NCBI GenBank assembly: GCA_041396905.1 | Contig: JAWKXQ010000009.1 | Location: forward strand, 26,223-90,222 | Direction: 5' to 3' | DNA from: Sphingomonadaceae bacterium | GTDB lineage: Bacteria; Pseudomonadota; Alphaproteobacteria; Sphingomonadales; Sphingomonadaceae | Length of the DNA: 64,000 nt | Part shown: positions 9-63,104 of the stretch, one piece after another | How the letters are laid out: every line of letters starts with the position of its first letter | Numbering within the stretch: position 1 is the first letter of the stretch | Program-made: the position numbers and the translations under genes | Notes under the pieces: model-generated | Told to the model about the DNA's origin: nothing | What the model saw: only the letters and a program-made list of their open reading frames with translations | Database searches by the model: none

Positions 9-16
9 TTACGCGA
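9..16. promoter_or_regulatory. Possible right half-site (TTACGCGA) of the recurrent TTGCGTAA-N16-TTACGCAA operator; the left half would lie beyond the window edge
   Basis: 7/8 match to TTACGCAA, 38 nt upstream of the ATG at 54. The partner half cannot be seen. Confidence 0.2.
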
Positions 17-53: not shown

Positions 54-923
54 ATGGCCGGACTGGCAATGGCGCCCACGGGGCAGGGCTTTGGCGCTCT
101 GGTGGAAGGGCTGGACATTCCCCGGGCAACTGGCAGCGAGCTGGATCAATGCCGCCAATGGCTGTTTGAACACGGCGCCCTGTTCATTCGCGGGCAGGAG
201 CTTGACCCGCAGGCGCAGATTGACTTTGCCGAGGCGCTGGGCACGATTGTGGTTAATCGCTTCTTCACACCCGTTCCCGGCTTTCCCAAAGTCGCCCAAT
301 TACTGACCGAGCCGACGCAGGACTGGATCATCGGGGAAAACTGGCACACTGACCATTCCTATGATGTGGTCCCGGCACTCGGCTCGATCCTCTATGCGGT
401 AGAGGTTCCGCCAGTGGGGGGTGACACGCAATTTATCGGCATGCAGCCGGCCTATGACAGCTTGCCGCCTGATTTGAAGGAGCGGATCGAAGGGCTCATG
501 GCCCGCCATGAAAGCGCGCATATCTTCGCGCCAAGCGAAGCGATCCGACTGGAAGAGGCGGCGGAGCGCAATGATGGCAATTACATGGAACGCGCAGCGA
601 CCTATCCCGAGGCGGTTCATCCTGTGGTGCTGAGCCACCCGGAAACCGGGCGCAAGGGCTTGTACGTCAATCCCGAATTCACCACCGGCATTGTGGATAT
701 GGACAAGGAAGAGGGCGATGCACTGTTGCAGCAGCTCTATGACCATATTTTGCAGCCGCAGTTCCGCTATGTATGGAAATGGCAACCCGGCTCGCTTGCC
801 CTGTGGGATAATCGCTCGACTTGGCATAAGGCGATGAATGACCATCGTGGGCATCGTCGACTGATGCGGCGGATTACGCTGGAAGGGGTGCCATTGGATC
901 AGGGAGCCAGAGCAGCGGCATGA
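54..923 (+). CDS. TauD/TfdA-family Fe(II)/2-oxoglutarate-dependent dioxygenase (taurine or sulfate-ester dioxygenase-like)
   Basis: 289-aa ORF with GGGAGAG Shine-Dalgarno before the ATG. WHTDHSYD (His-x-Asp iron ligands) and C-terminal WDNRSTWHKA are typical of the TauD/TfdA family. Confidence 0.85.
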   Translation: MAGLAMAPTGQGFGALVEGLDIPRATGSELDQCRQWLFEHGALFIRGQELDPQAQIDFAEALGTIVVNRFFTPVPGFPKVAQLLTEPTQDWIIGENWHTDHSYDVVPALGSILYAVEVPPVGGDTQFIGMQPAYDSLPPDLKERIEGLMARHESAHIFAPSEAIRLEEAAERNDGNYMERAATYPEAVHPVVLSHPETGRKGLYVNPEFTTGIVDMDKEEGDALLQQLYDHILQPQFRYVWKWQPGSLALWDNRSTWHKAMNDHRGHRRLMRRITLEGVPLDQGARAAA

Positions 924-1882
924 GTGGAGCAGATGATCCGGTCCGCACCTTTCGCAATGCGCTGGGGGCCTTTGCCACGGGCGTGACCATTGCGACCACG
1001 CTGGATGGAGAGGGGCAGCCGGTGGGTGTTACAGCCAGCAGCTTCAACTCGGTCAGCCTCGACCCGCCGCTGGTGCTGTGGTCGCTCGCCAAATCCAGCC
1101 TCTCGCGAGAGGCATTCTGCGGCAGCGGGCATTTTGCCGTGCATGTGCTGGCTGCGACGCAGGAAGACCTTTCCAACCGCTTTGCCAGATCGGGTGATGA
1201 CAAATTTGCCGGGGTGGACTGGTCCGGCGGGCAGCTGGGTTCGCCATTGCTGGCCGATTTTGCGGCGCGGTTTGAATGCCGCACTCAGCACCAATATGAA
1301 GGGGGCGATCACATCATCCTGGTGGGCGAAGTGATCGATTATGAAGCGCGCGAGGCCGCGCCGCTGCTGTTTCACGGCGGGAGTTATGCCGAACGTCGCC
1401 CGCGTACGCGCAGCGCCGGTGATCCCCCCTCGGTCGATCTGGAACACGGCAATTTCAGCGACGATTTCCTGTTCTACCTGCTCAGCCGCGCGCATTTCCA
1501 GACGTCACGCCCCACGCGGGAAAAGCTGGCGGAAATGGGTCTGTCGATGAGCGAATATCTGACGTTGGCCTTGCTGACGATGGAATCGCCCTTGTCAGCC
1601 TCTGCCATTGCCGAGCGGCTGGGCCACACCGGCCATGAACCGGCGTCAGACCATTTTGCGCGGCTGGCGGAGCAAGGCCTGATTACTGGCACTGCCGATG
1701 GCTATGATCTCGCTCCGGCGGGGCGCGATGTGTTTGTTGCCACGCTCGCCTTTGGCAAGGCGCTGGAAGCGGATCTGGCCGATCACTTTACCGAAGCCGA
1801 AATTGCCGAGACCAAGCGCGTATTGCGCCGGATTATTGAACTGACGGGTGAAGATGTGCCGATTGGCTGGCGTAATGGCTAG
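920..1882 (+). CDS. Fusion protein: N-terminal flavin reductase (HpaC/HsaB-like FMN-binding split barrel) and C-terminal MarR-like winged helix-turn-helix
   Basis: ATGA start/stop overlap with the upstream gene. N-terminal FRNALGAFATGVTIATT...SFNSVSLDPPLVLWSL is a flavin reductase domain signature. The C-terminal about 140 aa (LSMSEYLTLALL...SASAIAERLG...LAEQGLI) resembles a MarR wHTH. Confidence 0.75.
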   Translation: MSGADDPVRTFRNALGAFATGVTIATTLDGEGQPVGVTASSFNSVSLDPPLVLWSLAKSSLSREAFCGSGHFAVHVLAATQEDLSNRFARSGDDKFAGVDWSGGQLGSPLLADFAARFECRTQHQYEGGDHIILVGEVIDYEAREAAPLLFHGGSYAERRPRTRSAGDPPSVDLEHGNFSDDFLFYLLSRAHFQTSRPTREKLAEMGLSMSEYLTLALLTMESPLSASAIAERLGHTGHEPASDHFARLAEQGLITGTADGYDLAPAGRDVFVATLAFGKALEADLADHFTEAEIAETKRVLRRIIELTGEDVPIGWRNG

Positions 1883-6807: not shown

Positions 6808-7982
6808 TTGTCCCCCCTCGGCTCGCGCGGCAGGCCCAGACCACGTTCTGCGATCAGATTGCGCTGGATCTGGTTGGTTCCGCCATAGATCGTGTCAGCC
6901 CGCGAATAGAGGAACAGATTGGGCAACACGGACCATTCGTAATTCGGATTATCCGTCACTTCGCCCGCCTGACCCAGCACGTCCATCGCCAGTTCGCCCA
7001 GGCTGCGGCGCCAGCTGGCCCACTGAATCTTGTAGGTAAGCGCAGCCCCGTCCACCTTGCTGTGATCGGTGTTGGAGAGCATCCGCAGCGCGCCATAGCG
7101 CATCAGCCGCAGCCCGGTTTCCGCCTTGGCGATCCGCTGGCGGATCAGCGGGTCATTGGCTGCGCCATTGGCCTTGGCGGCGGCAATGATCTCATCCAGC
7201 TCGTTGCGGAAAGCCATTTGCTGGCCCAGCGTGGACACGCCGCGTTCAAAGCTGAGCAGGCCCATGGCGATCTTCCAGCCATCGCCGACAGCGCCGATCA
7301 GGCTGTCTTCCGGGCAGCGTGCGCCATCGAAGAAGGTCTCGTTGAACTCCGCATCGCCATTGATCTGTTCGATCGGGCGCACTTCGATCCCCGGCTGATC
7401 CAGCTCCATCATCAGGAAGGTCAGCCCCTTGGGGCCTTTGGAGCCTTCTTCGGTACGGGTGACAACAAAGATCCAGTCGGAAATATGCGCAAGGCTGGTC
7501 CAGATTTTCTGGCCATCCACGACCCATTCCCCATTTTCCAGCCGCCCCTTGGTGCGGACACTGGCAAGGTCGGACCCGGCATTGGGTTCGGAAAAGCCCT
7601 GGCAGAAAATAGTCTTGCCTGCGGCAATATCGGGCAAGAAGCGTTGCTTCTGCTCTTCCGTGCCGAAGGTGAGTATGGTTGGCCCGGCCAGCTCGATCCC
7701 GATATGATTGACCCGGCCCGGCACGCCCGCACGGGCATATTCCTCGGCAAAGATCACCTGCTGGGCCAGTGTCGCCCCGCGGCCGCCCCATTGCCTGGGC
7801 CAGCCGATGCAGGACCAGCCATGCTCGCCCAGATGCTGTTCCCATTCCTTGCGCCGCTCTGCCTTTTCCGTGAGCGTGGTGATGCCCTTGATGTCGGCAA
7901 ATTCGCCAGACATCTGAGCGTTGAGCCAGTCGGCGCATTCTTCGCGGAACTGCTCTTCCTCGGGCGAAAATCCCAGCTTCAT
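6804..7982 (-). CDS. Acyl-CoA dehydrogenase
   Basis: 392 aa with ACAD N-terminal/middle/C-terminal pattern (FSEPNAGSDL, TIYGGTNQIQRNLI). ATGA overlaps on both sides. Confidence 0.9.
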   Translation of the reverse strand: MKLGFSPEEEQFREECADWLNAQMSGEFADIKGITTLTEKAERRKEWEQHLGEHGWSCIGWPRQWGGRGATLAQQVIFAEEYARAGVPGRVNHIGIELAGPTILTFGTEEQKQRFLPDIAAGKTIFCQGFSEPNAGSDLASVRTKGRLENGEWVVDGQKIWTSLAHISDWIFVVTRTEEGSKGPKGLTFLMMELDQPGIEVRPIEQINGDAEFNETFFDGARCPEDSLIGAVGDGWKIAMGLLSFERGVSTLGQQMAFRNELDEIIAAAKANGAANDPLIRQRIAKAETGLRLMRYGALRMLSNTDHSKVDGAALTYKIQWASWRRSLGELAMDVLGQAGEVTDNPNYEWSVLPNLFLYSRADTIYGGTNQIQRNLIAERGLGLPREPRGDK

Positions 7983-9037
7983 GCCGCTTCTCCCAAAATC
8001 ATCGTGGCCAGCTGTTCACGGTGCCAGTTGCCATCACCCAGCATGCTCTGCAGCGCACGGGCGCGTTTGAAATAGAGATGCGCGTCATGTTCCCAGGTGA
8101 AGCCGATCCCGCCATGCAGCTGGATCATGTCCCCGGCACATTTGAACGCAGTATCGGCGGCAAAGCTCTTGGCGGCATGCACGGCCATGGCCGCTTCGTC
8201 AGAGCCTTCATCGACCGCGCAGGCTGCCCAATAGACGGCTGAGCGCGCCTGTTCGATTTCCACCACCATGTCAGCCAGACGATGCTTGTACGCCTGATAG
8301 GAACCAATCTGGCGGCCAAACTGCACCCGCTCCAGCGAATAGGCCACTGTGCGGTCCAGCGCAGCCTGTGCAAGGCCCAGCCCCTCTGCCGCCACCGCCA
8401 CAAAGCCCGCACGATGTGCAGCGGCCAGCGCGGCTGCGGGATCGGCCAGCGGATCGCCCTCTGCGCCGTCCAGCGTGACTTTTGTATAAGGGCGGGTCTG
8501 GTCCATCGTGGTCTGCGTGGTGACAGTCACACAAGGCGCATTGGCCGCCACGACCCATGCGCCTGTATTGCTGGTCACGACAAAATGGCTCGCGCTGCCG
8601 CCATGGGCGACAAAACCAGCCGCGCCGGTCAGGCTGTCGCCGCTGGCAGAGAGAGAAGCATCATGGACATAGGCGGCAATGCTGTCCCCGCTCAACAAAG
8701 CGGGCAGCAGATCGGCCTGCTGGCTGGCACTGCCGCCAGCGGCCAGCGCCTGCCCGCACAGCACCAAACTGCCCAGATGGGGCAGGGCGGCCACTTGCGC
8801 GCCAGCGGCTTCAGCGATGATCGCCAGCTCCACCATGCCCAGGCCCGCGCCACCCAGCTCTTCGCTGATGGCAATACCGGACAGGCCTAGCTCCGTGCAG
8901 AAATCACTCCATAATTGCGCGTCGATCCCGTCAGCAGCCATCGCCTTGCGGGTGCGTTCACTGGTGGCGTTCTCGCTGAAGAAAGCCTGCGCAGTCTCCG
9001 CGATCATCTGCTGTTCGTCAGTAAAGGCGAAATCCAT
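7979..9037 (-). CDS. Acyl-CoA dehydrogenase (probable partner subunit of 6804-7982)
   Basis: Start trimmed to MDFAFTDEQQMIAET (ATG at 9037, 1-nt overlap with the upstream stop). The extension to 9598 would overlap the SDR gene. The C-terminal region is ACAD-like (QLHGGIGFTWEHDAHLYFKRA). Confidence 0.85.
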   Translation of the reverse strand: MDFAFTDEQQMIAETAQAFFSENATSERTRKAMAADGIDAQLWSDFCTELGLSGIAISEELGGAGLGMVELAIIAEAAGAQVAALPHLGSLVLCGQALAAGGSASQQADLLPALLSGDSIAAYVHDASLSASGDSLTGAAGFVAHGGSASHFVVTSNTGAWVVAANAPCVTVTTQTTMDQTRPYTKVTLDGAEGDPLADPAAALAAAHRAGFVAVAAEGLGLAQAALDRTVAYSLERVQFGRQIGSYQAYKHRLADMVVEIEQARSAVYWAACAVDEGSDEAAMAVHAAKSFAADTAFKCAGDMIQLHGGIGFTWEHDAHLYFKRARALQSMLGDGNWHREQLATMILGEAA

Positions 9038-9942
9038 TATGCCGTCCCCCAGACCTTGCGCGGGGTAACCCGCTCGGCCATCAATTTGTCCACCGCGCCG
9101 CCGACATCTGCCGGGTTCCAGCGCGCTGGCTGGTCCACGAAAGGCCCTTCGCGCCAGCCATCTTCCAGCATGATCTTGCCGCCTTCCAGTTCGAACACGC
9201 AGCCGCTGACATGGGCGCTTTCGCTGCTCCCCAGCCATACGACGGTGGGGGCGATATTGGCTGGGTCCATCACATCGAAGGCCTGACCTTCGGTCGCCAT
9301 CTTCTCGGCAAAGGCCTGCTCGGTCATGCGGGTGCGCGCCGACGGGGCCAGCGCATTGGCGGTGATGCCATAGCGGCCCAGTTCTGCGGCCTGCACCAGT
9401 GTGAGCGAGGCGATCCCGCCCTTGGCGGTGGAATAGGCCGCCTGCGCGATGGAGCCTTGCAGCCCGGCACCGCTGGTGGTGTTGATGATCCGCGCATCGG
9501 GATTTTGCCCGTCCTTCTGCTTCGCGCGCCAGTAATTCACTGCATGGCGGGCAATGCAAAAATGGCCGCGCAGATGGACATGCATGGTCGCATCCCATTC
9601 TTCCAGCGTGGCGGAAACGAACATCCGGTCGCGCACGATTCCGGCATTGTTGACCACCACATGCAGATCGCCAAAGGCGTCGATCGCAGCTTTGACGATC
9701 CGCTCGGCAGCGTCCCAGTCGGTCACGTCTTCGTAATTGGCGATGGCCTGGCCGCCAGCGGCCTTGATCTCTGCCACCACTTCATCTGCCGCGCTGGTAT
9801 CGCGCCCTTCGCCGCCCAGCGAGGTGCCGATATCGTTGACCACGACATTGGCCCCTTCCGCGGCATAGCCCAGCGCATAGGCGCGCCCGAGGCCGCGCGC
9901 GGCGCCGGTGATGATTACGGTCCGTCCGTCACAAATTCCCAT
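9037..9942 (-). CDS. SDR-family dehydrogenase (Hsd4A/MFE-2-type 3-hydroxyacyl-CoA or 17beta-hydroxysteroid dehydrogenase-like)
   Basis: Start trimmed to MGICDGRTVIITGAARGLGRAYAL. Has VVNNAGI and YSTAKGG catalytic motifs. Confidence 0.85.
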   Translation of the reverse strand: MGICDGRTVIITGAARGLGRAYALGYAAEGANVVVNDIGTSLGGEGRDTSAADEVVAEIKAAGGQAIANYEDVTDWDAAERIVKAAIDAFGDLHVVVNNAGIVRDRMFVSATLEEWDATMHVHLRGHFCIARHAVNYWRAKQKDGQNPDARIINTTSGAGLQGSIAQAAYSTAKGGIASLTLVQAAELGRYGITANALAPSARTRMTEQAFAEKMATEGQAFDVMDPANIAPTVVWLGSSESAHVSGCVFELEGGKIMLEDGWREGPFVDQPARWNPADVGGAVDKLMAERVTPRKVWGTA

Positions 9943-9943
9943 G

Positions 9944-10399
9944 TCAGTTATTTCCCTGATCCGGTGTTGTCTTGAGATGGGCGCTGGTGTCGCCCCAGAA
10001 ATCGACTCCGGCATAGGCGCGCCGGGTGAAATGCCATGCGCCGTCTGCCAGCGCGAAGTGATCGTGATAGCGCCCGCTCCCGATCACCCGCAGCGGCAGC
10101 GTGTCGGCCTGTTGCAGCACAGTCCATTGTGAGCGGCAGGCGGCACTCTCGCCATCCTCTGCGAGTTCGATCAGCGGGTTGCTGACCAGATGGCGGGTGC
10201 GCGGTGTTCCATCGTCATAGATATGCACGAAGCTGCGCCACATCGCGGTGATCGCCTCTGTCCCGCGCAGTTCCTTGCCGCCAACCACCACGCAGCCGCG
10301 GTCGAACAGGCGCGCGGCCTCTTCAAGGCGGCCCGCGTCAAAATGCTCGGCATAGGTGGCGAGCAGATTGGGAATGGCGAGGGCGGGGTTGAGCGTCAT
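9944..10399 (-). CDS. NTF2-superfamily SnoaL_4-like protein (BaiE/scytalone-dehydratase-like)
   Basis: 151 aa. Tyr16-x4-Asp21 and His70 sit at the spacing seen in the other three paralogues in this window. Confidence 0.6.
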   Translation of the reverse strand: MTLNPALAIPNLLATYAEHFDAGRLEEAARLFDRGCVVVGGKELRGTEAITAMWRSFVHIYDDGTPRTRHLVSNPLIELAEDGESAACRSQWTVLQQADTLPLRVIGSGRYHDHFALADGAWHFTRRAYAGVDFWGDTSAHLKTTPDQGNN

Positions 10400-19884: not shown

Positions 19885-19916
19885 TTGCGTAGATTATGGC
19901 AACCATTTTTACGAAT
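19885..19916. promoter_or_regulatory. Operator-like site TTGCGTAG-N16-TTACGAAT (13/16 to consensus) in the divergent SDR/hsaA promoter region
   Basis: Read directly. Same 16-nt spacer length as the perfect sites. Overlaps a second inverted repeat, GCAAATCG-N12-CGATTTGC (19861-19888). Confidence 0.45.
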
Positions 19917-27095: not shown

Positions 27096-27566
27096 ATGAC
27101 GAAAAGCGATGACCTTACAAGCCGCCTGCAACGTCTGGAAGACCTTGAAGCGATCCGCAATCTGATCGCGTCATATGGCCCACTGGCCGATAGCGGCGAT
27201 GCACAGGGGCTGGCGCGTTTGTGGGCAGAGGATGGCGAATATGCGGTCGGCGGCTTTGGTACGGCGCGGGGCCATGCGGAGATTGCGGCATTGATCGAAG
27301 GTGAGGTGCACCAGCAACTGATGGCGGGTGGCTGTGCCCATGTCCTCTCGCCGCATCGGGTTATGCTGGATGGCGTTAGGGCGGAGGCGACCGGTTATAG
27401 CGTGGTCTTTCGCAAGGCTGGCGACAGCCATGAGGCGTGGCGCGTCTCTGCCAATCGCTGGCTGCTGGAGCGCACGGGAGCTGGCTGGTGGGTAAAGCGG
27501 CGGGAAAATGCACCGCTGGATGGTACCGAAGGGGCGCGCTCCTTGCTGGTTTCGGGCAGCGATTGA
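27096..27566 (+). CDS. NTF2-superfamily SnoaL_4-like protein (BaiE-like dehydratase candidate)
   Basis: 156 aa with GAGGAAGG SD. N-terminal helix LQRLEDLEAIRNLIASYGPLAD with Tyr27-x4-Asp32 and His82. Confidence 0.6.
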   Translation: MTKSDDLTSRLQRLEDLEAIRNLIASYGPLADSGDAQGLARLWAEDGEYAVGGFGTARGHAEIAALIEGEVHQQLMAGGCAHVLSPHRVMLDGVRAEATGYSVVFRKAGDSHEAWRVSANRWLLERTGAGWWVKRRENAPLDGTEGARSLLVSGSD

Positions 27567-27595
27567 GACCAGCCGCCGCCCGGCCATTACTGCAC

Positions 27596-29941
27596 TCAGA
27601 ACCTTGCGCCCAGTGTCACGCCCCATGTCCGCGGATCGGGGAAATAGCCCAGCGTCAGCCCGCCAAAGCCAGGCCCGAAATCAATGAAGTTGGACGGGTC
27701 GCGTTCCTTGGTCAGGTTACGGACAAAGCCAGCCAGTTCCAGAGTGGCCCCGCCCAGCTCGATTTCGCTAACCGCCAGCCTCAGATTGATGATCGTGCGC
27801 CCCGGCGATTGCGTGTTGTAGGCATTCTGGTCCGACGGGGTCGGCACAGTCAGCGGATAGGGGAAAGTGAAATATTTGCTGACGTGGTTGAGATCGCCAT
27901 AAAGGTTCAGCTTGCCCCAGCTGCCCTGCGTCACCTGCCAGTCAAAGCCCAGCGTGGCGCTGAATTTGGGCGTATGCGGGAAGGCGCGATTATCGGCAAC
28001 ATCCACCCCGCCATCGATATAGCGGTTATATTTCGCATCGAGGAAGGCCAGCGATCCGTTAAGGGTCAGCCCTTCAACCGGGCGGAAGACGCTTTCCACT
28101 TCCAGACCCTGAATGCGAGCGGAGGCAGCATTGCGGATCACCGATGCCGCCGCGCCGGTGGCACGGAAGATCGACAGCTGGATATCCTTGTGCTTGTCGT
28201 GGAAAGCGGCAAGGTTGAGCACCAGCGCGCCATCCATCATTACCGATTTCAGCCCGACTTCGTAGCTGTCCACCTTTTCCGGGCGATAGGGATCGCACAG
28301 TTCGAATGCGCCGGTCGGGCAGGCCGCCGTGGGGGCGCCGAATTCGTTGGTTTCGCCATTGAAGCCACCCGATTTGAAACCACGGGCGAAGCGGGCATAG
28401 ACGTTCACGTCCGGCGTGATCTTGTAAGACAGGGTCGCGGCCGGTGAGAAATTGTTATATTTCGCGTCCGGTACCCCGCCATAGGGGATATCTGCCACTA
28501 CCAGTGGTGAGGTGATGCCATTGGCAGCGTCAAAATTGATCCGCAGGAAGCGCCGAATATCCTTGCGCTCATGCGTGTAACGGCCACCCAGCGTCAGCAT
28601 CAACGCATCAGTCAGGTCGAAATCGACCTGCGCGTAGAGCGCCCATGCCTTGGTGTTGGAGCCATAATCGGACTGATAGTCAGCCCCGCCGCCAAAGAAG
28701 CTCTGCGGGCCAAGCGTTTCAGCCTTCTCATCGAAATAGAAGGCACCCAGCACATATTTCAGGCGATCATCCATGGCCGCCCCGGTCAGCTGCAGTTCCT
28801 GGCTAAACGCATCATAATCGCTGATGCGCTGGGTGAAGGCGACCGGCAAAGGCGACCCGTCGAGGTCCAGCCCGTCGGCCCAGTTCATGTTGCGATAGGC
28901 GGTGATGGATTTCAGCTCTGCCGCGCCAAGATCCAGCGTCAACGTCAGCGCATGACCATAGGCGCGCGAGCGTTCGTAGATCGCACCGTCAATCGAGGCG
29001 GTCGTTTGCCGTTCCGGATTGGCGTAAAGGTCAATCGGAAAGAAGGCGCCGCCAAAGGCATAGGAAGGCGAACCCGGATCAAAAATGTCACGCAAATCGC
29101 CATTCTGATTGACGCGCAGCAATTGCGCAAAGGGCGGGCGCTGTGTGATCTTGTTGTAATCGTAAGTGTAATCGACCGTCAGATTGCCAAAATCGCCGCG
29201 CAGCTGGACCATGAAGGCCTTGCTGTCGATCGTGTCGATATCCGACACGGAATTGGGCCCGGCGAGGAAGGCCGCGGGGAAGGGGTTGGGAATGGTTTTC
29301 ACCAACCCGTCACGCTTGGTGATCTGGCCAGACACCTTGGCCGCAATCGGCCCCACAGCTGGCAGATCAAGCGACGCGCGGGCACGCACATAATCATAGC
29401 TGCCATAGGTGATTTCAGCCCGGCCACCGGCTTCGCCGCTGGGCTTGCGGGTAATCAGATTGACCGCACCGGCGAGGGAATTGCGCCCATAGAGCGTACC
29501 CTGCGGCCCGCGCAGGATTTCCACCCGTTCCAGATCGGCAATATCGAACAGCGAACCCTGCGCCTTGGAAATATAGACCCCGTCAACATAGAGGCCGACG
29601 GCCGGCTCCCAGGTGATCGCGGGGTTGATCGTTACCGATCCGCGAATGGCGATCTGCGAAATCGTCTTGCTCGACGGGGCACGTTCGATTTTCACATTCG
29701 GAGCGACAGTGCTCAGCGCATCGAGCGATGTTACGCCGCGGCTTTCCAGATATTGCTCACCCACCGCAGAGATGGCGATGGGCACGTCCTGAATATTTTC
29801 CTCGCGCTTCTGCGCGGTGACCACGATGACACCCAGACCCGACTCGTCCGACTGAGGCGGAGCTTCTGATTGAGCGAAGGCAGGCGTGGCAATGGCGACG
29901 GCCAGCGAATACAGCGACAAACGGGCAAGATGACGGGACAT
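27596..29941 (-). CDS. TonB-dependent outer-membrane receptor
   Basis: ATG at 29941 after AGGAGAGG. Signal peptide ...ATPAFAQS, plug region GVIVVTAQKREENIQDVPIAISA, C-terminal ...LGARF. Confidence 0.95.
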   Translation of the reverse strand: MSRHLARLSLYSLAVAIATPAFAQSEAPPQSDESGLGVIVVTAQKREENIQDVPIAISAVGEQYLESRGVTSLDALSTVAPNVKIERAPSSKTISQIAIRGSVTINPAITWEPAVGLYVDGVYISKAQGSLFDIADLERVEILRGPQGTLYGRNSLAGAVNLITRKPSGEAGGRAEITYGSYDYVRARASLDLPAVGPIAAKVSGQITKRDGLVKTIPNPFPAAFLAGPNSVSDIDTIDSKAFMVQLRGDFGNLTVDYTYDYNKITQRPPFAQLLRVNQNGDLRDIFDPGSPSYAFGGAFFPIDLYANPERQTTASIDGAIYERSRAYGHALTLTLDLGAAELKSITAYRNMNWADGLDLDGSPLPVAFTQRISDYDAFSQELQLTGAAMDDRLKYVLGAFYFDEKAETLGPQSFFGGGADYQSDYGSNTKAWALYAQVDFDLTDALMLTLGGRYTHERKDIRRFLRINFDAANGITSPLVVADIPYGGVPDAKYNNFSPAATLSYKITPDVNVYARFARGFKSGGFNGETNEFGAPTAACPTGAFELCDPYRPEKVDSYEVGLKSVMMDGALVLNLAAFHDKHKDIQLSIFRATGAAASVIRNAASARIQGLEVESVFRPVEGLTLNGSLAFLDAKYNRYIDGGVDVADNRAFPHTPKFSATLGFDWQVTQGSWGKLNLYGDLNHVSKYFTFPYPLTVPTPSDQNAYNTQSPGRTIINLRLAVSEIELGGATLELAGFVRNLTKERDPSNFIDFGPGFGGLTLGYFPDPRTWGVTLGARF

Positions 29942-29967: not shown

Positions 29968-29999
29968 TTGCGTAAATATTATTGCAGCAGATTACGCAA
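29968..29999. promoter_or_regulatory. Perfect operator TTGCGTAA-N16-TTACGCAA between the TonB receptor and the NTF2 gene
   Basis: 16/16 palindrome read directly, 27 nt from the receptor ATG. AT-rich spacer atattattgcagcaga. Confidence 0.6.
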
Positions 30000-35800: not shown

Positions 35801-35832
35801 TTGCGTAATATATTTGCATATTCACTACGAAT
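35801..35832. promoter_or_regulatory. Operator-like site TTGCGTAA-N16-CTACGAAT (13/16) in the divergent OYE/SDR promoter region
   Basis: Perfect left half, degenerate right half, identical spacing. 17 nt from the ATG at 35849. Confidence 0.45.
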
Positions 35833-37303: not shown

Positions 37304-39018
37304 GTCGCTCGCGCACCCCTGACGAGTTGCCCCGGCTTCGCTCCGGTCAGCTGCCCGTTTCGCCGGATCACTGCGCCCGAAACAATGGTCGCATCATAGC
37401 CGGTTGCACGTTGCGTCAGGCGGCGCCCCCCGGCGGGCAGATCGTGAACGATTTCCGGGCAATGCAGCTGCAGCCGGTCGAGGTCGATCACATTGACGTC
37501 TGCCTTTGCTCCAACGCTCAAAACACCGCGATCCGCCAGCCCGACAGCACGCGCGGCCTTGGCCGAGAGCATATGCACGGCCTCAGCCAGCGGGATGGAC
37601 AAGCCTTCGCGGTTGGGCCCGCGCACGAATTCGCTCAGCAAGTAAGTAGAATAGCTCGCATCGCAGATCGCACCATAATGCGCGCCGCCATCGCCCAATG
37701 CGGGCACGCAATGCGAGTGGTTGAGCATCTGATGCGCGCCTTGTAGCGTGGCCCCTTCATAATTGCCCAGCGCCACCATGAAAAAGCCCTTGCCGCCGGT
37801 TTCCAGCAAACGGTCATAGGCGACTTCCTGCGGACTGCATCCGCGCGCGCGGGCCTGATCGGCGATGCTGCAGGATTTGGGCGGGGCATAGTCTGGCGGA
37901 TCATTCAGCGGGAACATCCATTCCCAATTGCGACCCAGCGCGTTGAAGGGATGGCCCTCAGTGAAATTCTCTGTCAGCAGCGCTTCTCGCAAGTCCGGAT
38001 CGCGCATGGCGGAGAGTTTCTGATCCAGCGGCAGGTCTGCGATCTTCGCCCAGCTGGGGCACAGGACGAAGGGATGGACGGTCAGCTCCAGCCCGGCGAT
38101 CAGCCCGATCGGGCGTGGCATGACCTGCGCGTTCACATGCTGTCCGGCGGCGTTGGACCTATCCAGCAGGTCGAGAACTTCGCGCCAGCCACTATCGCCG
38201 TCATTGCCGGATGCCAGCGTAAAGGTTCCCGCAAGGCCGGTTGCCCTGGTCACTTCTTCGACAAAGCGATATTCCACATCCCACCGGCGAAAAGCATCAA
38301 GCACGATCTGGAAGGTTCCGCCGCCACCCTCGGCGACGCCGTGGCAGATCTCGGTCAGTTCACGCACATCCGCTTCGAAGCTGGGAATGCTGCCGCCATC
38401 GGCGGTCTTGTGGATGGACAGGCGCGATGTGGCAAAGCCGAGCGCACCCGCTTCCACCGCTTCCCGCGCGAGCTGGCGCATCAGCGCGAGGTCGTCTTCC
38501 GTCGCCGGTTCCTGCGCCGCGCCGCGCTCGCCCATGGCAAAGACCCGCAATGGGCTGTGCGGCAGATAGGCGGCAACGTCGATATCGCGTTTGCCCGCGG
38601 CCACACGGTCGAGATATTCGGGAAAGCTCTGCCAGTTCCATGGCAGGCCGTCCGCCATCACCACGCCGGGGATGTCCTCAACCCCCTCCATCACGCGGAT
38701 CAGCAGATCGTGATCCTCCGCACGGCAAGGAGCAAAGCCGACCCCGCAATTGCCCATCACCGCCGTCGTCACGCCATGGGCAGAGGATGGATCGAGCACG
38801 TCCGACCAGATCGCCTGACCATCATAGTGGGTATGCACATCGACAAAGCCGGGGGTGACGATCCGCCCCTTGGCGTCGATCTCTTCCGCGCCTTTGCCGG
38901 ACACTTCGCCTATGGCGGCAATGCGCCCGCCTGAAATGGCAAGGTCGCCCTCGAGCAAATCGCCGCCGGTTCCGTCAGCGATTGTGCCGCCGCGAATGAT
39001 CAGGTCAAAATCGCTCAT
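37300..39018 (-). CDS. N-acyl-D-amino-acid deacylase (D-aminoacylase) family amidohydrolase
   Basis: 572 aa. DLIIRGGTIADGTG...GRIVTPGFVDVHTHYDGQ is the family N-terminal signature. Confidence 0.8.
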   Translation of the reverse strand: MSDFDLIIRGGTIADGTGGDLLEGDLAISGGRIAAIGEVSGKGAEEIDAKGRIVTPGFVDVHTHYDGQAIWSDVLDPSSAHGVTTAVMGNCGVGFAPCRAEDHDLLIRVMEGVEDIPGVVMADGLPWNWQSFPEYLDRVAAGKRDIDVAAYLPHSPLRVFAMGERGAAQEPATEDDLALMRQLAREAVEAGALGFATSRLSIHKTADGGSIPSFEADVRELTEICHGVAEGGGGTFQIVLDAFRRWDVEYRFVEEVTRATGLAGTFTLASGNDGDSGWREVLDLLDRSNAAGQHVNAQVMPRPIGLIAGLELTVHPFVLCPSWAKIADLPLDQKLSAMRDPDLREALLTENFTEGHPFNALGRNWEWMFPLNDPPDYAPPKSCSIADQARARGCSPQEVAYDRLLETGGKGFFMVALGNYEGATLQGAHQMLNHSHCVPALGDGGAHYGAICDASYSTYLLSEFVRGPNREGLSIPLAEAVHMLSAKAARAVGLADRGVLSVGAKADVNVIDLDRLQLHCPEIVHDLPAGGRRLTQRATGYDATIVSGAVIRRNGQLTGAKPGQLVRGARAT

Positions 39019-39563
39019 GCCCGCTCCACATCTGCCCAGATGGCACCGGCTTCATGCGTGTCGAGATCAACTGTCCCGCGCACACCCAGCGCGGCGCGGG
39101 CTTGGTCCAGCGGCAGGTCCCAGTAATCTTCCATCTTCGCCATCCAGAATGCGTCTGACTGACGGGCAATGGCCATGCCCTGTTCCATGCATTGCAGCGC
39201 TGTGCCCCACACTTGCGGGTAATGCAGCACAGTGCGGATGACATAACGCATGGTGCCCAGAATCCCCATCGCGTTCATTTCGCCTGCCAGTTCCTTGTTG
39301 GCGATGAACTTGTCGATCGTGCCGAGGCGAAACCAATAGGGGATCAGCTCGCCCATGTAATTGAACCCGCCGCCGGTCAGTATGTGTTCGAAATCATGCG
39401 TCTCCGCAGCAGGCGGATAATCCGGCCCGTTGCGCCGCAGCGCAATCTTGGCGATCCAGTCACGCAGGCGTGGATCATTGAGATATTTGGAAGAAGAGAT
39501 CAGCACGGAGGAATCGGTGCCCAGCAACGCCACCCCGCGCGCGAGATAGGGAATATCATCCAT
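39015..39563 (-). CDS. Coq4-like putative metal-binding protein (short form)
   Basis: HDFEH-x11-E (HDFEHILTGGGFNYMGE) matches the Coq4 HDxxH-x11-E motif. The start is chosen at the ATG preceded by GAGAGGA. The upstream ORF extension overlaps the divergent gene. ATGA overlap with the amidohydrolase. Confidence 0.5.
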   Translation of the reverse strand: MDDIPYLARGVALLGTDSSVLISSSKYLNDPRLRDWIAKIALRRNGPDYPPAAETHDFEHILTGGGFNYMGELIPYWFRLGTIDKFIANKELAGEMNAMGILGTMRYVIRTVLHYPQVWGTALQCMEQGMAIARQSDAFWMAKMEDYWDLPLDQARAALGVRGTVDLDTHEAGAIWADVERA

Positions 39564-39590
39564 CGCCTGCATCCTCTCATTTTGCATTTC

Positions 39591-39610
39591 TTGCGAGCAA
39601 TGATACGCAA
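39591..39610. promoter_or_regulatory. Variant inverted repeat TTGCGAGCAATGATACGCAA (TTGCG-N10-CGCAA) in a divergent promoter region
   Basis: Shares the TTGCG/CGCAA cores with the main operator but has short spacing. Confidence 0.25.
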
Positions 39611-39657
39611 TTGGAAAATAGAATCCATAATGAATGTGGAAATGCGAAGGGATTGTG

Positions 39658-40422
39658 ATGTCTGATAACGCAAATGGCGGTGGTTGCGTGATTGTGTTCG
39701 GGGCCAGTGGCGGGATCGGCTCTGCCATTACCCGCGTGCTGGCACTGGATGGGATGCCCCTCGCGCTGGTCTGCAACCGCAAGCGTGACATGGCCGAGCA
39801 ACTGGCGGCTGAGATCGGTCAGGGGGCCAGCGTGCATCGGGGCGATGTCTCCACCCCCGATGGCGCGGCAGGCATCATTGCTGAAGCGCTTGCCACGCAT
39901 GGCCGGATCAGCGGGCTGGTCTGGGCTGCCGGGCCGCTGGTGCAGCAGCATTTCATGGGGCAGGTCAGCGATGAGGAATGGCAACGCTCGCTCGACATAG
40001 AGACCAGCGGCTTCTTTCGGGCATTACGCGCCGTATTGCCTGCGATGAAGCGGAACGGAGGCGGGGCGATTGTCCATCTCGGCTCTGCCGGTCATCTGCG
40101 CTGGCCTGATCGCGATGGCCTGTCGGTTGTGCCCAAGGCGGCCAATGAAGCGCTGGTCAAAGGGATTGCGCGCGAGGAAGGGCGCCATGGCATCCGCGCC
40201 AATTCCGTGCTGGTCGGCGTGATTGATGCGGGCATGTTCCACGAATTGATGGAGCAGGGCCAGTTCCCCGATGGCTGGGTGGAAGAAACGTTGAAAGCGC
40301 TGGCGATCAAGCGCTGGGGGCAGGCGGAAGAGGTTGGCCATGCGGTCAGTTGGTTGCTGTCGGACAAATCTGCCTATGTTACAGGGCAACAGATCGCCGT
40401 GGCCGGTGGTTATGGAATTTGA
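39658..40422 (+). CDS. SDR-family oxidoreductase
   Basis: Start trimmed to MSDNANGGGCVIVFGASGGIGSAI after GAAGGGA. Confidence 0.8.
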   Translation: MSDNANGGGCVIVFGASGGIGSAITRVLALDGMPLALVCNRKRDMAEQLAAEIGQGASVHRGDVSTPDGAAGIIAEALATHGRISGLVWAAGPLVQQHFMGQVSDEEWQRSLDIETSGFFRALRAVLPAMKRNGGGAIVHLGSAGHLRWPDRDGLSVVPKAANEALVKGIAREEGRHGIRANSVLVGVIDAGMFHELMEQGQFPDGWVEETLKALAIKRWGQAEEVGHAVSWLLSDKSAYVTGQQIAVAGGYGI

Positions 40423-42128: not shown

Positions 42129-42160
42129 TTGCGTAACACTCTATCATTTCAGTTACGCAA
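42129..42160. promoter_or_regulatory. Perfect operator TTGCGTAAC-N14-GTTACGCAA (equals TTGCGTAA-N16-TTACGCAA)
   Basis: 18/18 palindrome read directly. It fills most of the 68-nt gap between divergent start codons (42105 and 42174). Confidence 0.6.
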
Positions 42161-44126: not shown

Positions 44127-44263
44127 TGCGGTTTCTCCCGATATTTCTCCATCAGACATATCGCAAACCGTGAAATGCGCAAATATTTATCCTTTCAATT
44201 TCGCATTTAGCGGTTAGAGTCGCAAAAAACACGATGTTTGCGTCAGCTTGGGAGAGATTCGAC

Positions 44264-48369: not shown

Positions 48370-49235
48370 TGGCTATGCCCACCGACATCAAGATTATCGA
48401 CTGCATGCTTGGCATTCCCGAAGCAGAGGATCGGGGGGACTGGTTCGCCAGCTTCCGCCCGCTGATCAAGGATCAGGAAACGCTGCAGCAGTTTTCCATG
48501 CCTGCACAATATATGTTCAAGGACATTCCGCAGAGCGGCAAGCAGGAGGATTATACCGCCTGGGTGGTCGAGCAGATGGACGCGCATAATGTTGAGCGCG
48601 CGCTGGTTGGCTGGAACGACAATGACACATCGCGCCGCGCGAAGGAGAATTACCCGGATCGCTTTTTCTTCGATCTGCCCTTTGATCCCAATGGCGGGGT
48701 CGCTGAAATCCGACGCATCCGGCGCATTCATGAAGAGGTTGGCATCTCGGCGCTAAGCTGCTTCCCGGCTGGCACCCTGCCGCAGGTGGCGATTGACCAC
48801 AAATATATGTTCCCCTTCTACGCGCTGGCATGCGAGCTGGATATTCCGGTCTGCATCAATGCCGGTGTACCGGGGCCGCGCATTCCGATGGATACGCAGA
48901 AGGTCGAACGGATCGACGAGGTGTGCTGGTACTTCCCCGAGCTGAAGCTGGTGATGCGGCACGGTGCGGAACCTTGGGAGGATCTGGCTGTGAAGCTGAT
49001 GATCAAATATCCCAATCTCTATTATTCGACCAGCGCCTTTGCCCCCAAACATTACCCCAAGGCGATCATCGATTACGCAAACACGCGCGGCGCGGACAAG
49101 ATCATCTATGCTGGCTATTTCCCCATGGGATTGAGCCTGGAGCGGATCATGCGCGACATGGCCAATGTTCCCTTAAAGGATGAAGTCTGGCCCAAATTCC
49201 TGCGCGAAAACGCGATCAAGGTGTTCGGCCTCTAA
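48369..49235 (+). CDS. Amidohydrolase_2-family metal-dependent hydrolase/decarboxylase (ACMSD/LigW/LigI-like TIM barrel)
   Basis: 288 aa, 1-nt overlap with the ligase stop. Family-level resemblance (IIDCMLGIP..., HGAEPW, YAGYFP). No specific function can be inferred. Confidence 0.65.
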   Translation: MAMPTDIKIIDCMLGIPEAEDRGDWFASFRPLIKDQETLQQFSMPAQYMFKDIPQSGKQEDYTAWVVEQMDAHNVERALVGWNDNDTSRRAKENYPDRFFFDLPFDPNGGVAEIRRIRRIHEEVGISALSCFPAGTLPQVAIDHKYMFPFYALACELDIPVCINAGVPGPRIPMDTQKVERIDEVCWYFPELKLVMRHGAEPWEDLAVKLMIKYPNLYYSTSAFAPKHYPKAIIDYANTRGADKIIYAGYFPMGLSLERIMRDMANVPLKDEVWPKFLRENAIKVFGL

Positions 49236-49350
49236 GGCCACCGGAGCCGGGAAGTCTGCTCCGTACCAAACTGTCACGGGCGCGGGAGACAACCCCCCGC
49301 ATCCCTTGATCCCCGGTCGGATTGGGCCGGGTACTGAATGGAGAGAAACC

Positions 49351-50457
49351 ATGGCTGATGGTGATAACAGCAAGGCAACTGATGCGCGCACGGCACCGGT
49401 GCTGGTGTGGCAGATGCTCGAAAAGATGAGCAAGGATGAGCTGCTCGAATGGCGACGCAGCGAGCCCAAGAACCGCGCCACCGTGGAAGAGCGCAATCTG
49501 GATGGGCCGTTCCCTTATGGCTGGTATCCGGCGATGTTGTCAGCCGATCTCGCCGTGGGTGAGGTCAAGCCGCTGCGCTATTTCTCCACCGATCTGGTGA
49601 TCTGGCGCGGCGAAGATGGCCAGCCGCGCATGCTCGATGCCTATTGCAAGCATCTGGGCGCGCATATGGGCTATGGCGGCAAGGTGACGGGCAACAATAT
49701 CGAATGCCCCTTCCACAGCTGGCAGTATAATGGCGAGGGCGTGGTGGAAGACATCCCCTATGCCAAGCGTATCCCGCCGCAGGTGAAGCGCCCCTGTGAC
49801 ATTCAGTGGCCAGTATGCGAGGCCAATCGCTGGATCTGGTTCTGGTATCACCCCGATGGTGTCGCCCCGATGTGGGAAGTGGAGCATCTGCCCGAAGCGT
49901 CTGATCCTGAATGGACCGATTATGACGTGTTCGAATGGGATGTATGGGGCAACCTGCAGAACATGGCCGAAAACGGCGTGGACGCAGCCCATTTCAAATA
50001 TATCCATGGTGCTGCCGACATGCCCGACTATGAATTTGACTGGGGCGAAGGCAATCATCTGCGCGGTGCGCGCCTGTTCGTGAAGATGGGGACGCCACGC
50101 GGCGTGGTCGATGGCGAAATTGCCTATCGCAATGTCGGGCCGGGTCAGAGCTACACCCGCTTCACCGGTATTTGCGAGACATTACTCGTCGCTTGCATCA
50201 CGCCGATCGACAAGGATCATGCCGTTTCCCGCTTCTGCTTCACGCAGCCCAAGGCGCAGAAGGAAGGCCCCGCAGGCGGCGCTGCGCGCGCCATCATCAA
50301 GGATATTTGCAAGCAATTCGATCAGGACAAGGTCGTGTGGGACCGCCAGAAATATCTGCCCAATGCTCTGGTTTGCGATGGTGACGGCCCGATCGGTAAA
50401 TTCCGCAGCTGGTACAGCCAGTTCTACCAGACCAAGCAAGCTGAAGCAGCGGAATGA
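49351..50457 (+). CDS. KshA-family Rieske [2Fe-2S] non-heme-iron oxygenase with an N-terminal extension
   Basis: Start at the ATG after GGAGAGAAACC. CKHLGAH...CPFHSW Rieske motif and ENGVDAAHFKYIHG iron motif as in KshA. About 45 extra N-terminal residues relative to the paralogue at 55145. Confidence 0.8.
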   Translation: MADGDNSKATDARTAPVLVWQMLEKMSKDELLEWRRSEPKNRATVEERNLDGPFPYGWYPAMLSADLAVGEVKPLRYFSTDLVIWRGEDGQPRMLDAYCKHLGAHMGYGGKVTGNNIECPFHSWQYNGEGVVEDIPYAKRIPPQVKRPCDIQWPVCEANRWIWFWYHPDGVAPMWEVEHLPEASDPEWTDYDVFEWDVWGNLQNMAENGVDAAHFKYIHGAADMPDYEFDWGEGNHLRGARLFVKMGTPRGVVDGEIAYRNVGPGQSYTRFTGICETLLVACITPIDKDHAVSRFCFTQPKAQKEGPAGGAARAIIKDICKQFDQDKVVWDRQKYLPNALVCDGDGPIGKFRSWYSQFYQTKQAEAAE

Positions 50458-54076: not shown

Positions 54077-54556
54077 ATGAACGGAAATTTCGAAATCGAC
54101 GATATTGACGTATCCATCATCGCCGAATTGCGCGAGGATGGACGGGCCAGCAACCAGCAGATCGCCAGCAAGCTCGGGCTGACGGCGGCCACAGTCTCTG
54201 CGCGGATCAAGCGGATGGAAGATGCCGATAAATTGCGCGTGGTTGCTGTGTCGGACTTCAGTGCCCATGGCTATAATCTGCTGATTCAGGTGGCAGTGGA
54301 AGTTGATGGCCGCGCCTCATCCGAAGTCGCGGCAGATCTGGCCAAGTTGCCGGAAGTCTTCGCAGTGCATCAGGTGACCGGGCGGTATGACATCGACATG
54401 CTGATCGCGGTGCGTGACTATGACGAATTGAAGCATGTGATGCTGGAGCGGCTCGCCGGGATTCGGGGGATCCGTTCCATGCTGCCTGCGATTGCGACCG
54501 CAATCCCCAAATACAAATTCGATGTTGCCCCGATAGAAGCGAGGGATGCGTCATGA
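54077..54556 (+). CDS. Lrp/AsnC-family transcriptional regulator
   Basis: 159 aa. IDDIDVSIIAELREDGRASNQQIASKLGLTAATVSARIKRME HTH followed by a RAM-like domain. Confidence 0.9.
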   Translation: MNGNFEIDDIDVSIIAELREDGRASNQQIASKLGLTAATVSARIKRMEDADKLRVVAVSDFSAHGYNLLIQVAVEVDGRASSEVAADLAKLPEVFAVHQVTGRYDIDMLIAVRDYDELKHVMLERLAGIRGIRSMLPAIATAIPKYKFDVAPIEARDAS

Positions 54557-55020
54557 GCCAGGTGCAGATTGATGAGCTGGATCGCCAGCTGATTGACATC
54601 CTGTCAAAGGATGCCCGCATCTCCAACCGCAAGATCGCGGCCGATCTGGGCGTGACCGAAGGCACTGTGCGCGGGCGCATCCGGCGGTTGCAGAATGACC
54701 GGCTGATTGCCTTCACAGCGATCACCAGCTTCGAACTGGCGGATAATACCAAGATGGCCTTTATCGGCGTGCAGGCCGACTTCGGACGTGTGAACGAGAT
54801 TGCAGACACCATTGCCAAGCTGCCCGCCATCGACGCCGTGATGATCACCATGGGCCGCTTCAACATTCAGGCATTTTGCCTGTTCAGCGAGCTGGACAGG
54901 CTGCACGAAATCGCTTCGGAAGAGATCCTTTCCATTGATGGCGTGCACCATGTGGAAAGCTCGATTGCGGTGAAGACGCTCAAATATAATGCCCGGATCG
55001 TGAAGATCACAGATAGCTGA
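54553..55020 (+). CDS. Lrp/AsnC-family transcriptional regulator (second, overlapping paralogue)
   Basis: ATGA overlap with the previous gene. IDELDRQLIDILSKDARISNRKIAADLGVTEGTVRGRIRRLQ. Confidence 0.9.
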   Translation: MSQVQIDELDRQLIDILSKDARISNRKIAADLGVTEGTVRGRIRRLQNDRLIAFTAITSFELADNTKMAFIGVQADFGRVNEIADTIAKLPAIDAVMITMGRFNIQAFCLFSELDRLHEIASEEILSIDGVHHVESSIAVKTLKYNARIVKITDS

Positions 55021-55027
55021 TCGCAAT

Positions 55028-55059
55028 TTGCGTAACGTCTAATGCAATAGATTACGCAT
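55028..55059. promoter_or_regulatory. Operator TTGCGTAA-N16-TTACGCAT (15/16) between the AsnC pair and kshA
   Basis: Read directly. Begins 8 nt after the AsnC stop, 86 nt upstream of the kshA ATG. Confidence 0.55.
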
Positions 55060-56224: not shown

Positions 56225-56240
56225 ATCCGGCATCCTGTGG

Positions 56241-56257
56241 CATTTCAGTTACGCAAA
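56241..56257. promoter_or_regulatory. Orphan operator half-site; a 17-mer CATTTCAGTTACGCAAA identical to 42145-42161
   Basis: Exact 17-nt identity read directly. No matching left half at the expected -24 position. Followed by TTGCGTTT-N14-ATGCGCAA (56266-56295). Confidence 0.35.
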
Positions 56258-56364
56258 ACTGCATTTGCGTTTTGCAATTCCTTTTAAATGCGCAATTCAG
56301 ATTGACTTTCGTTACGATTTTGTCGAATGACCGTTGGCAATAAACGGTTTCATGGGAGGAGAGC

Positions 56365-63060: not shown

Positions 63061-63072
63061 CACATCCTCCAT

Positions 63073-63104
63073 TTGCGTAATCTATCTGTATCCCTATAAC
63101 GCAT
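63073..63104. promoter_or_regulatory. Operator-like site TTGCGTAA-N16-TAACGCAT (14/16) in the divergent SDR/OYE promoter region
   Basis: Read directly. 13 nt from the SDR ATG and 38 nt from the OYE ATG. Confidence 0.5.

Follow-up and report, generated by a model that had tools for sequence, protein, structure and literature searches.

A 64,000-nucleotide stretch of contig JAWKXQ010000009.1 from a Sphingomonadaceae bacterium (hereafter the window, meaning this whole stretch) carries repeated copies of a 32-bp palindrome, made of two inverted 8-bp arms with 16 nt between them, at promoters of genes for steroid and bile-salt degradation. Comparative sequence evidence indicates that this palindrome is a genuine conserved DNA control site of those genes. 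With a probability of about two in three, we propose that it acts as the operator of a regulon for steroid and bile-salt catabolism and is bound by AsnC1 and AsnC2, a tandem pair of Lrp/AsnC-family proteins encoded in the same cluster. The palindrome had been noticed earlier from the letters of the window alone, in what we call here the original prediction, as a cluster-wide operator with no obvious regulator. No description of this motif was found in the literature that we searched.

Copies of the palindrome in the window and in other genomes

The original prediction had listed six sites, and a search of the window with the pattern TTGCGTAA-N16-TTACGCAA, allowing up to three mismatches, returned exactly these six, with the mismatch counts given for them, and no others (Table 1). 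In dinucleotide-preserving shuffles the mean number of matches was 0.10 and the maximum was 1, and none of the 100 shuffles reached the six observed. As had been described, all six sites are non-coding and five of them lie between divergently transcribed genes, the sixth being placed at 55028 between kshA and the stop codon of AsnC2, so that the AsnC pair ends 8 nt before it. The arms of the perfect copy at 42129 indeed reach 9 bp, extending inward (TTGCGTAAC...GTTACGCAA), and the start codons on its two sides are 23 and 13 nt distant. The distance of 13-50 nt from start codons that had been given for the sites in general was only approximate, our own assignments yielding 0-48 nt for the five divergent sites and 85 nt for the kshA site. 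Start codons that abut a half-site, or that stand 1 nt off, were observed in the window (63072/63073 and 39673/39674) and in two of the loci from other genomes or metagenomes that were compared with the window and are denoted here by L-numbers (L077, 7535/7537; L126, 5999/6001). Such an arrangement implies that transcription starts inside or upstream of the operator, or that the mRNA is leaderless.

A first position-weight matrix, under which the site at 35801 obtained the top score, was built from the six window sites and used to find weaker copies. These were located at 44175, 56288 and 39642, all of them non-coding, the last being the weakest member of the set and a candidate only. The spacer at 56288 contains TTGACT. 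The half-site that had been noted at the window edge was present as described and probably represents the right arm of a site that the edge truncates.

Table 1. Positions of the operator copies and of the candidate DNA-binding proteins in the window.
Feature	Positions	Strand	Surroundings or basis
Operator, 0 mismatches	29968-29999		TonB-dependent receptor gene (-, ATG ~29941) / SnoaL-like gene (+, 30102)
Operator, 0 mismatches	42129-42160		SDR gene (-, ATG ~42105) / SnoaL-like gene (+, ATG 42174)
Operator, 1 mismatch	55028-55059		8 nt past AsnC2 stop codon, 85 nt upstream of kshA (55145)
Operator, 2 mismatches	63073-63104		SDR gene (-, ATG abuts at 63072) / Old-Yellow-Enzyme-type gene (+)
Operator, 3 mismatches	19885-19916		leftward operon (SDR, TesB-type dioxygenase, IpdAB, others) / rightward operon (HsaA/TesA1-like, TesD, TesE, TesF, TesG)
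Operator, 3 mismatches	35801-35832		Old-Yellow-Enzyme-type gene (-, start 35764) / SDR gene (+, ATG 35849)
Weaker operator, ATGCGCAA-N16-TTTCGCAT	44175-44206		flavin monooxygenase gene (-) / SDR-headed operon (+, from 44234) ending MFS-AsnC1-AsnC2
Weaker operator, ATGCGCAA-N16-TTACGATT	56288-56319		upstream of second TonB-dependent receptor gene (56365, +)
Weak candidate, ATGCGAAG-N16-TAACGCAA	39642-39673		gene of unknown function (-) / SDR gene (+); very weak partner at 39579
Half-site, TTACGCGA	9-16		37 nt upstream of TauD ATG (54), TauD / flavin-reductase-MarR operon
AsnC1, Lrp/AsnC family, first gene of tandem pair, candidate regulator subunit	54077-54556	+	AsnC-type HTH and ligand-binding domain
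AsnC2, Lrp/AsnC family, second gene, start overlaps AsnC1 stop	54553-55020	+	Pfam
Flavin-reductase-MarR fusion, C1-type (HsaB-like) reductase	920-1882	+	NF045919, PDB 5ZC2/5ZYR

A scan for perfect palindromes in one genome per GTDB species gave at least 119 loci. Among the matches listed, 17 lie in steroid clusters that show homology to the window and have the site at the orthologous promoters; they comprise all 10 from Sphingomonadales, five from other Alphaproteobacteria or unclassified Proteobacteria and two from metagenome-assembled genomes (MAGs) of Gammaproteobacteria, and the remaining loci are mostly chance matches or unrelated repeats. The promoters at which the site recurred are those of the SnoaL/SDR genes (42129; perfect in L012, L014, L019, L074, L094 and L058, near-perfect in L120), the SDR/Old-Yellow-Enzyme-type genes (63073; perfect in L055, L085, L088 and L113), the TonB-dependent receptor gene (56288; perfect and with TTGACA in the spacer in L002 and L048, with a further site at 12232 of L122), the SnoaL gene (29968; upstream of SnoaL4_30102 homologs in L094, L053 and L043) and the HsaA/SDR genes (19885; L019 at 6845, L004 at 5791, L053 at 1813, and L193).

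A second set consisted of 80 metagenome loci anchored on kshA, amounting to 1.0 Mb. About 90 matches in this set reached a matrix score of at least 20, compared with one in shuffled copies and one in 187 kb of unrelated loci. In about 20 related loci the site at 55028 keeps its position amid flanking sequence that diverges freely. Overlap with coding sequence was counted in the 80 kshA loci together with L120, L122 and L124 (1.08 Mb), and 86 of the 95 sites were found outside the regions aligned to homologs of window proteins, even though those regions make up 55% of the DNA. No site was present in a 41-kb non-steroid Sphingobium locus that served as negative control (H2). The search of a plasmid collection with the window returned partial, non-syntenic matches only; one of them, unannotated (H1, the locus L120), holds a related cluster with seven sites. 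The motif is mostly non-coding and is kept at orthologous promoters across distant taxa with divergent spacers. This comparative sequence evidence supports the earlier proposal of a cluster-wide operator that would join the ring-cleavage, uptake and accessory modules in one regulon.

For motif statistics and a further weight matrix, 125 distinct sites were gathered. They share the consensus unit wTGCGTAA-N16-TTACGCAw, in which the spacing is rigid, positions 2-7 of the arm (TGCGTA) are 88-99% conserved and the spacer is unconserved, with an AT content of 72% vs 57% in the flanks. When the arrangements of half-sites were counted, the inverted one at an offset of 24 occurred 24 times and each of the others at most three times. 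Departures from the consensus were one-sided in 190 cases and compensatory in 26. No terminator-like structure or T-run was detected at the three sites scanned, and the site at 55028 is without a terminator-like hairpin. Because of the rigid spacing, the unconserved AT-rich spacer and the one-sided departures, we conclude from these statistics that the element is a site for a sequence-specific DNA-binding protein with fixed geometry, and not an RNA hairpin, a terminator or a mobile repeat. A different partition, in which each 8-bp arm is a complete small palindrome bound by a dimer, was ruled out, since the G/T asymmetry within the arm is kept and is mirrored in the other arm.

The AsnC pair and the layout of its proposed sites

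In agreement with the original prediction, Pfam scans of all substantial open reading frames (ORFs) of the window revealed no TetR, LuxR, IclR or LysR gene. No match to the TetR_N domain was obtained in any ORF scanned, and the proteins with a helix-turn-helix (HTH) among these ORFs are limited, as had been said, to the AsnC pair and the fusion of a flavin reductase with a MarR-like domain. Both AsnC1 and AsnC2 match Pfam PF13404, PF13412 and PF01037, which correspond to an N-terminal AsnC-type winged HTH and a C-terminal AsnC/RAM domain. They also match the NCBIfam models for Lrp, LysM and AsnC, in all cases below the equivalog cut-offs, and their closest solved relatives in the PDB are FL11, PH0140, LrpA and Lrp.

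No transcription factor other than the AsnC pair is conserved across these clusters. Erythrobacter, Parasphingorhabdus halotolerans and a Novosphingobium chromid have the order MFS-AsnC1-AsnC2-site-kshA (AsnC1 homologs with 62-83% identity), and the operon with the AsnC pair at its end is headed by a further site. Orthologs of the window site at 44175 head the same operon in L122 (1671), L124 (1442) and L210 (889), and in the last of these, which belongs to a marine lineage, the operon is closed by the pair. Where the pair has a promoter of its own, the site is found in that promoter, as in L053 (a Gammaproteobacteria MAG), in L157/L163, with a KstD-like gene transcribed divergently from the pair, and in L211/L212, where this site scores 31-35. 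With L077/L080/L126 and L129, these are the loci in which a site lies in the control region of the regulator itself. The copy at 44175 is a probable autoregulatory site of the pair, the link in the window being indirect, via the head of the operon. No site adjoins the TetR and MarR genes that occur in L173 and L180. The view that the motif has no obvious regulator was thus too pessimistic, since synteny, sites in its own promoters and the presence of the motif beside AsnC orthologs in Actinobacteria all speak for the AsnC pair.

The actinobacterial evidence came from two sides. Among the matches listed were two Rhodococcus loci in which a perfect site lies upstream of a Rieske oxygenase operon of a non-steroid pathway; the single AsnC-family gene of these loci is 1.5 kb off, and its ATG stands 1 nt from the second-best matrix match of the locus, TTGCGCAC-N16-CTACGCAT. 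In addition, AsnC orthologs in R. qingshengii, Gordonia, Nocardioides and Streptomyces share a cluster consisting of Rieske, ferredoxin, reductase, amino-acid permease, zinc-dependent alcohol dehydrogenase (Zn-ADH), AsnC and SDR genes. The four loci share no regulator other than AsnC, and the best matrix matches in each of them are situated upstream of the Rieske gene or against the start codon of AsnC. The presence of the motif beside AsnC in Actinobacteria means that it follows AsnC-family genes into another phylum and another pathway. Within the loci concerned (L077, L080 and L126-L129), that of Nocardioides shows two units overlapping at a 31-bp offset, and full R-L junctions such as TTACGCATTGCGT were seen only in some actinobacterial sites. 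The recognition helix of AsnC2, TEGTVRGR, resembles that of the single actinobacterial AsnC proteins near the same motif (pattern [TS]EGT[VI]RxR), which is suggestive of AsnC2 rather than AsnC1 as the protein that reads the arm.

The spacing between neighbouring sites was also regular. A partner at 62-64 bp was found for 29 of 133 sites, no other offset being represented more than three times apart from the trivial peak at 24. The partner mainly keeps the arm nearest the main site, so that half-sites start at -39, 0, +24 and +63. Pairs of this kind occur in the window at 56225/56288 (the partner, 63 bp upstream, covering 56225-56256), 44112/44175, 39579/39642 and 29968/30030 (to 30061), with very weak partners, and they were also noticed in the related loci L159, L155, L180, L210 and L212. 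Pairing at 62-64 bp suggests four binding units about 31.5 bp apart. When the arms are taken as halves of Lrp-type boxes with degenerate outer arms, the inferred centres of the boxes fall 31-32 bp apart, that is, three helical turns. In the Lrp family, boxes are phased at two or three helical turns and oligomers wrap the DNA (PMC2995911). These distances suggest that the 24 bp between half-sites need not be spanned by one dimer and that the two arms belong to adjacent Lrp-type boxes. The inward model, with dimers centred inside the spacer, was considered less likely, as it leads to irregular spacings of 47, 16 and 47 bp.

According to the mechanism that we propose, each conserved 8-bp arm would be read by one winged-helix domain, and the two arms would be parts of two neighbouring Lrp-type dimer boxes with centres about 31-32 bp apart. 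At some promoters, two further and weaker boxes would complete an array of four, and an oligomer of tetramer to octamer size would wrap the promoter DNA. The AsnC pair would also control its own synthesis. Because the sites stand 0-36 nt from start codons in compact divergent promoters, they must overlap the core promoter or the start of transcription, and repression, relieved by a ligand derived from the pathway, would be the most likely mode of action there. At kshA the site is followed, some 50 nt further downstream, by a separate conserved -35/-10-like pair of the type TTGCCA-N17-CTAT, and next to its -35 there is one more half-site, ACGCAT. Since the kshA site is upstream of this pair, wrapping or another mode may apply to that promoter. 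Sphingobium sp. Chol11 degrades bile salts inducibly (PMC8399759), an observation compatible with both directions of regulation. Candidate effectors would be a steroid acid, a CoA ester, or the glycine or taurine freed from conjugated bile salts; amidases and TauD are encoded in the cluster.

Taking these elements further, AsnC1 and AsnC2 might form a hetero-oligomer of alternating orientation, XY-YX-XY-YX, in which only one type of subunit reads TGCGTAA. Such an assembly would then act as the master switch for the catabolism of steroids and bile salts in many Alpha- and Gammaproteobacteria, responding to a ligand that is steroid-derived or released from conjugates of bile salts (glycine or taurine), and the single-gene relatives in Actinobacteria would share the same grammar. 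A heterodimer would explain why only the facing arms are conserved, since one paralog alone would read TGCGTAA. We put this fuller model forward tentatively, as a possibility with the odds against it; if true, it would add a new effector class and a new operator grammar to the Lrp family.

Objections and competing explanations

Several observations weigh against the assignment of the site to the AsnC pair. It is based on co-occurrence. Actinobacteria have one AsnC gene for the same arrangement of arms, which can thus be explained without a heterodimer. In the proposed boxes the outer arms are almost unconserved, compared with the canonical Lrp palindromes of 13-15 bp with an AT-rich centre. 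A scan for E. coli-type promoters was nearly empty; promoter positions are inferred, and the direction of regulation is not readable from sequence. Among the 21 long kshA loci with sites, 11 have no AsnC pair within 10 kb, a count that is confounded by phylogeny and covers a short range; in the marine-lineage loci that apparently have no pair, synteny with L210 places it probably just outside the 10 kb fetched. Finally, L207 (16643-17634; 51-53% identity) and L194 (4591-5573; 30-38% identity) encode AsnC-like tandem pairs in steroid clusters and show no motif in 17-21 kb, and the [TS]EGT[VI]RxR helix is also found in L207. Either the operator has diverged in these two loci or the role of the pair differs; a variant N16 palindrome was sought there and in L186, and nothing recurrent appeared.

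Both the kshA loci with no pair nearby and the two pairs with no sites would also be expected if the operator were genuine and its binder, for instance of AraC, TetR or MarR type, were encoded outside the window, the AsnC pair being merely a regulated member. Genes for AraC (L122/L123), TetR (L173 and L180) and MarR (L173) regulators are indeed present near related clusters, and an AraC regulator is mentioned in another cluster of Chol11 (PMC12882949). None of these regulators, however, is conserved across the site-bearing clusters or has a site in its own promoter. Moreover, the recurrence of the motif in Actinobacteria, where the pathway is a different one and no regulator but AsnC is shared, and the 31.5-bp phasing, which fits the Lrp family, both favour the AsnC pair. 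We regard a binder from outside as unlikely, though as the most probable of the alternatives.

The other DNA-binding candidate of the window is the flavin-reductase-MarR fusion, whose dimeric core would hold two distant winged-helix domains and could in this way explain the 24-bp spacing. The MarR-like domain is C-terminal, a probable site precedes the operon of the fusion at the window edge, and the homolog in L043 has a perfect site in its promoter. Nevertheless, the protein matches the family of the Acinetobacter baumannii p-hydroxyphenylacetate 3-hydroxylase (HPAH) C1 reductase over its full length and in both domains (NF045919, E 2e-66; below the equivalog cut-off), and in that reductase the MarR-like domain is an effector-binding, autoinhibitory allosteric switch with its 'recognition' helix packed on the reductase (PMC11618861). 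No homolog of the fusion lies within 10 kb of kshA in the 80 site-rich loci, none was found in the motif-bearing actinobacterial loci, and L043 is the only site-bearing locus that has one. As an HsaB-type enzyme, the protein would in any case be expected among the members of the regulon. Binding by the fusion is accordingly a quite improbable solution. It is more likely an HsaB-type reductase, and a member of the regulon rather than its regulator. While sharing both domains with the A. baumannii enzyme, the window protein stands in a genomic context that points to an HsaB/TesA2-type role, and the analysis suggests a substrate-gated HsaB-type reductase acting in the hydroxylation of steroid ring A. 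The gene of the fusion overlaps the stop codon of TauD, with which it is probably co-transcribed.

A further explanation would dispense with a dedicated regulator, the palindrome being the bidirectional core promoter of an alternative sigma factor whose -35 and -10 in each direction are the two arms. The arms are 16-18 bp apart, like -35 and -10 elements, and many sites stand 0-36 nt from start codons on both sides. Yet dyad symmetry is kept at unidirectional sites (kshA and the TonB-dependent receptor gene), the distance to the start codon varies from 0 to about 130 nt, kshA has its separate conserved promoter-like pair downstream, and partner sites exist at 63 bp. To our knowledge, there is no precedent for -35 and -10 elements that are exact reverse complements of each other. 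Taken together, these points make a sigma-factor promoter very improbable.

That the palindrome works at the RNA level, as a hairpin, an attenuator or a terminator, or that it belongs to the dispersed repeats (a repetitive extragenic palindrome, a miniature inverted-repeat transposable element or the end of an insertion sequence) is scarcely credible, for although an 8-bp inverted repeat could form a stem and the same string occurs inside true repeat elements of other genomes in the scan, the changes in the arms are mostly one-sided, T-runs and terminator calls are absent, the copies occupy orthologous promoters in distant taxa, and their spacers and flanks differ, unlike those of the repeat elements, which have identical flanks. 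The elements in question are multi-copy and were seen in Eubacteriales KG125 (L036, L076, L095 and L096), Pseudoramibacter (L020, L052 and L099) and Lutibacter (L030, L082 and L097); they carry a hairpin with a 13-bp stem (TTGCGTAACAGAT...ATCTGTTACGCAA) and are probably insertion-sequence or transposon ends that have no relation to the operator. Four loci of Chloroflexota (L023, L054, L098 and L109) contain arrays of the 8-bp units TTGGGTAA, TTGCGTAA and TTACCCAA, which match the pattern by chance.

Gene content, related systems and significance

The Pfam scans identified the window as a steroid and bile-salt degradation cluster. The genes for ring degradation encode KshA, a KshA paralog and proteins of HsaA/TesA1, TesB, TesD, TesE, TesF and TesG type. 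They are accompanied by genes for an IpdAB-type CoA transferase, acyl-CoA dehydrogenases, thiolases, many SDRs, SnoaL-like and Old-Yellow-Enzyme-type proteins, KstD-like flavoproteins, amidases, TauD and an alkyl sulfatase, and transport is represented by two TonB-dependent receptors and one MFS transporter. The second KshA-like Rieske oxygenase (49180-50457) is part of an operon with two acyl-CoA ligases, an amidohydrolase, an amidase, an SDR and the MFS transporter, and this gene order is kept in Erythrobacter, Parasphingorhabdus and marine lineages. In the 539-aa ORF at 7979-9598, acyl-CoA dehydrogenase domains begin only at residue 193, and the ORF overlaps an SDR gene on the same strand (9037-10014); for these two reasons the start of the dehydrogenase is probably near 9020. 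Three proteins (27171-27626, 39015-39791 and 60497-62305) had no Pfam or NCBIfam match. The one of 602 aa comes after a TonB-dependent receptor gene, an adjacency that is kept in L048.

The proposed system resembles the multi-box operators of the Lrp/AsnC family (E. coli Lrp, Pyrococcus FL11, PDB 2E1C, and Sulfolobus Ss-LrpB; PMC2995911) in its protein domains, in the phasing at about three turns, in clustered sites of unequal strength and in the presence of sites in the regulator's own promoter. It differs from them in that no 13-15-bp AT-centred box is evident, the motif consisting instead of two 8-bp arms exactly 16 bp apart of which the facing arms are conserved, and in that a tandem pair of paralogs would act on steroid-degradation targets and not on amino-acid metabolism. 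For the actinobacterial TetR-type repressors of steroid catabolism, KstR and KstR2 (PMC8399759), a regulon is likewise defined by one palindrome repeated at many, often divergent, promoters of a steroid cluster. In contrast to those systems, the window has no TetR gene and its motif extends over 32 bp, and KstR homologs are absent from bile-acid-degrading Proteobacteria (PMC8399759). Proteobacterial regulators of steroid degradation are known from Comamonas testosteroni, namely the LuxR-type TesR, the LysR-type HsdR and TeiR (PMC8399759); these are activators of other families, of which the window has no genes, and for them no palindrome of comparable cluster-wide occurrence has been reported (Comamonas sequence was not compared). 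In overall size the present motif also stands apart from the operators of KstR and KstR2, which are much shorter and bind a single dimer.

According to the literature, the regulation of bile-acid degradation in Proteobacteria is largely unknown, and the tandem Lrp/AsnC genes of Sphingobium sp. Chol11 have been only a matter of speculation, in a 2026 paper (PMC12882949). What is gained here is an operator of defined sequence, together with a weight matrix drawn from 125 sites and a candidate regulator that can be named. The regulon becomes predictable in genomes and metagenomes, where the motif would flag steroid degraders and their uptake genes, and the mechanism of induction becomes directly testable; the same components may provide parts for steroid-responsive biosensors or for deregulated biotransformation strains. 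If the assignment to AsnC1 and AsnC2 is true, the Lrp family would reach from amino-acid metabolism to steroid catabolism, with an unusual architecture of its sites.

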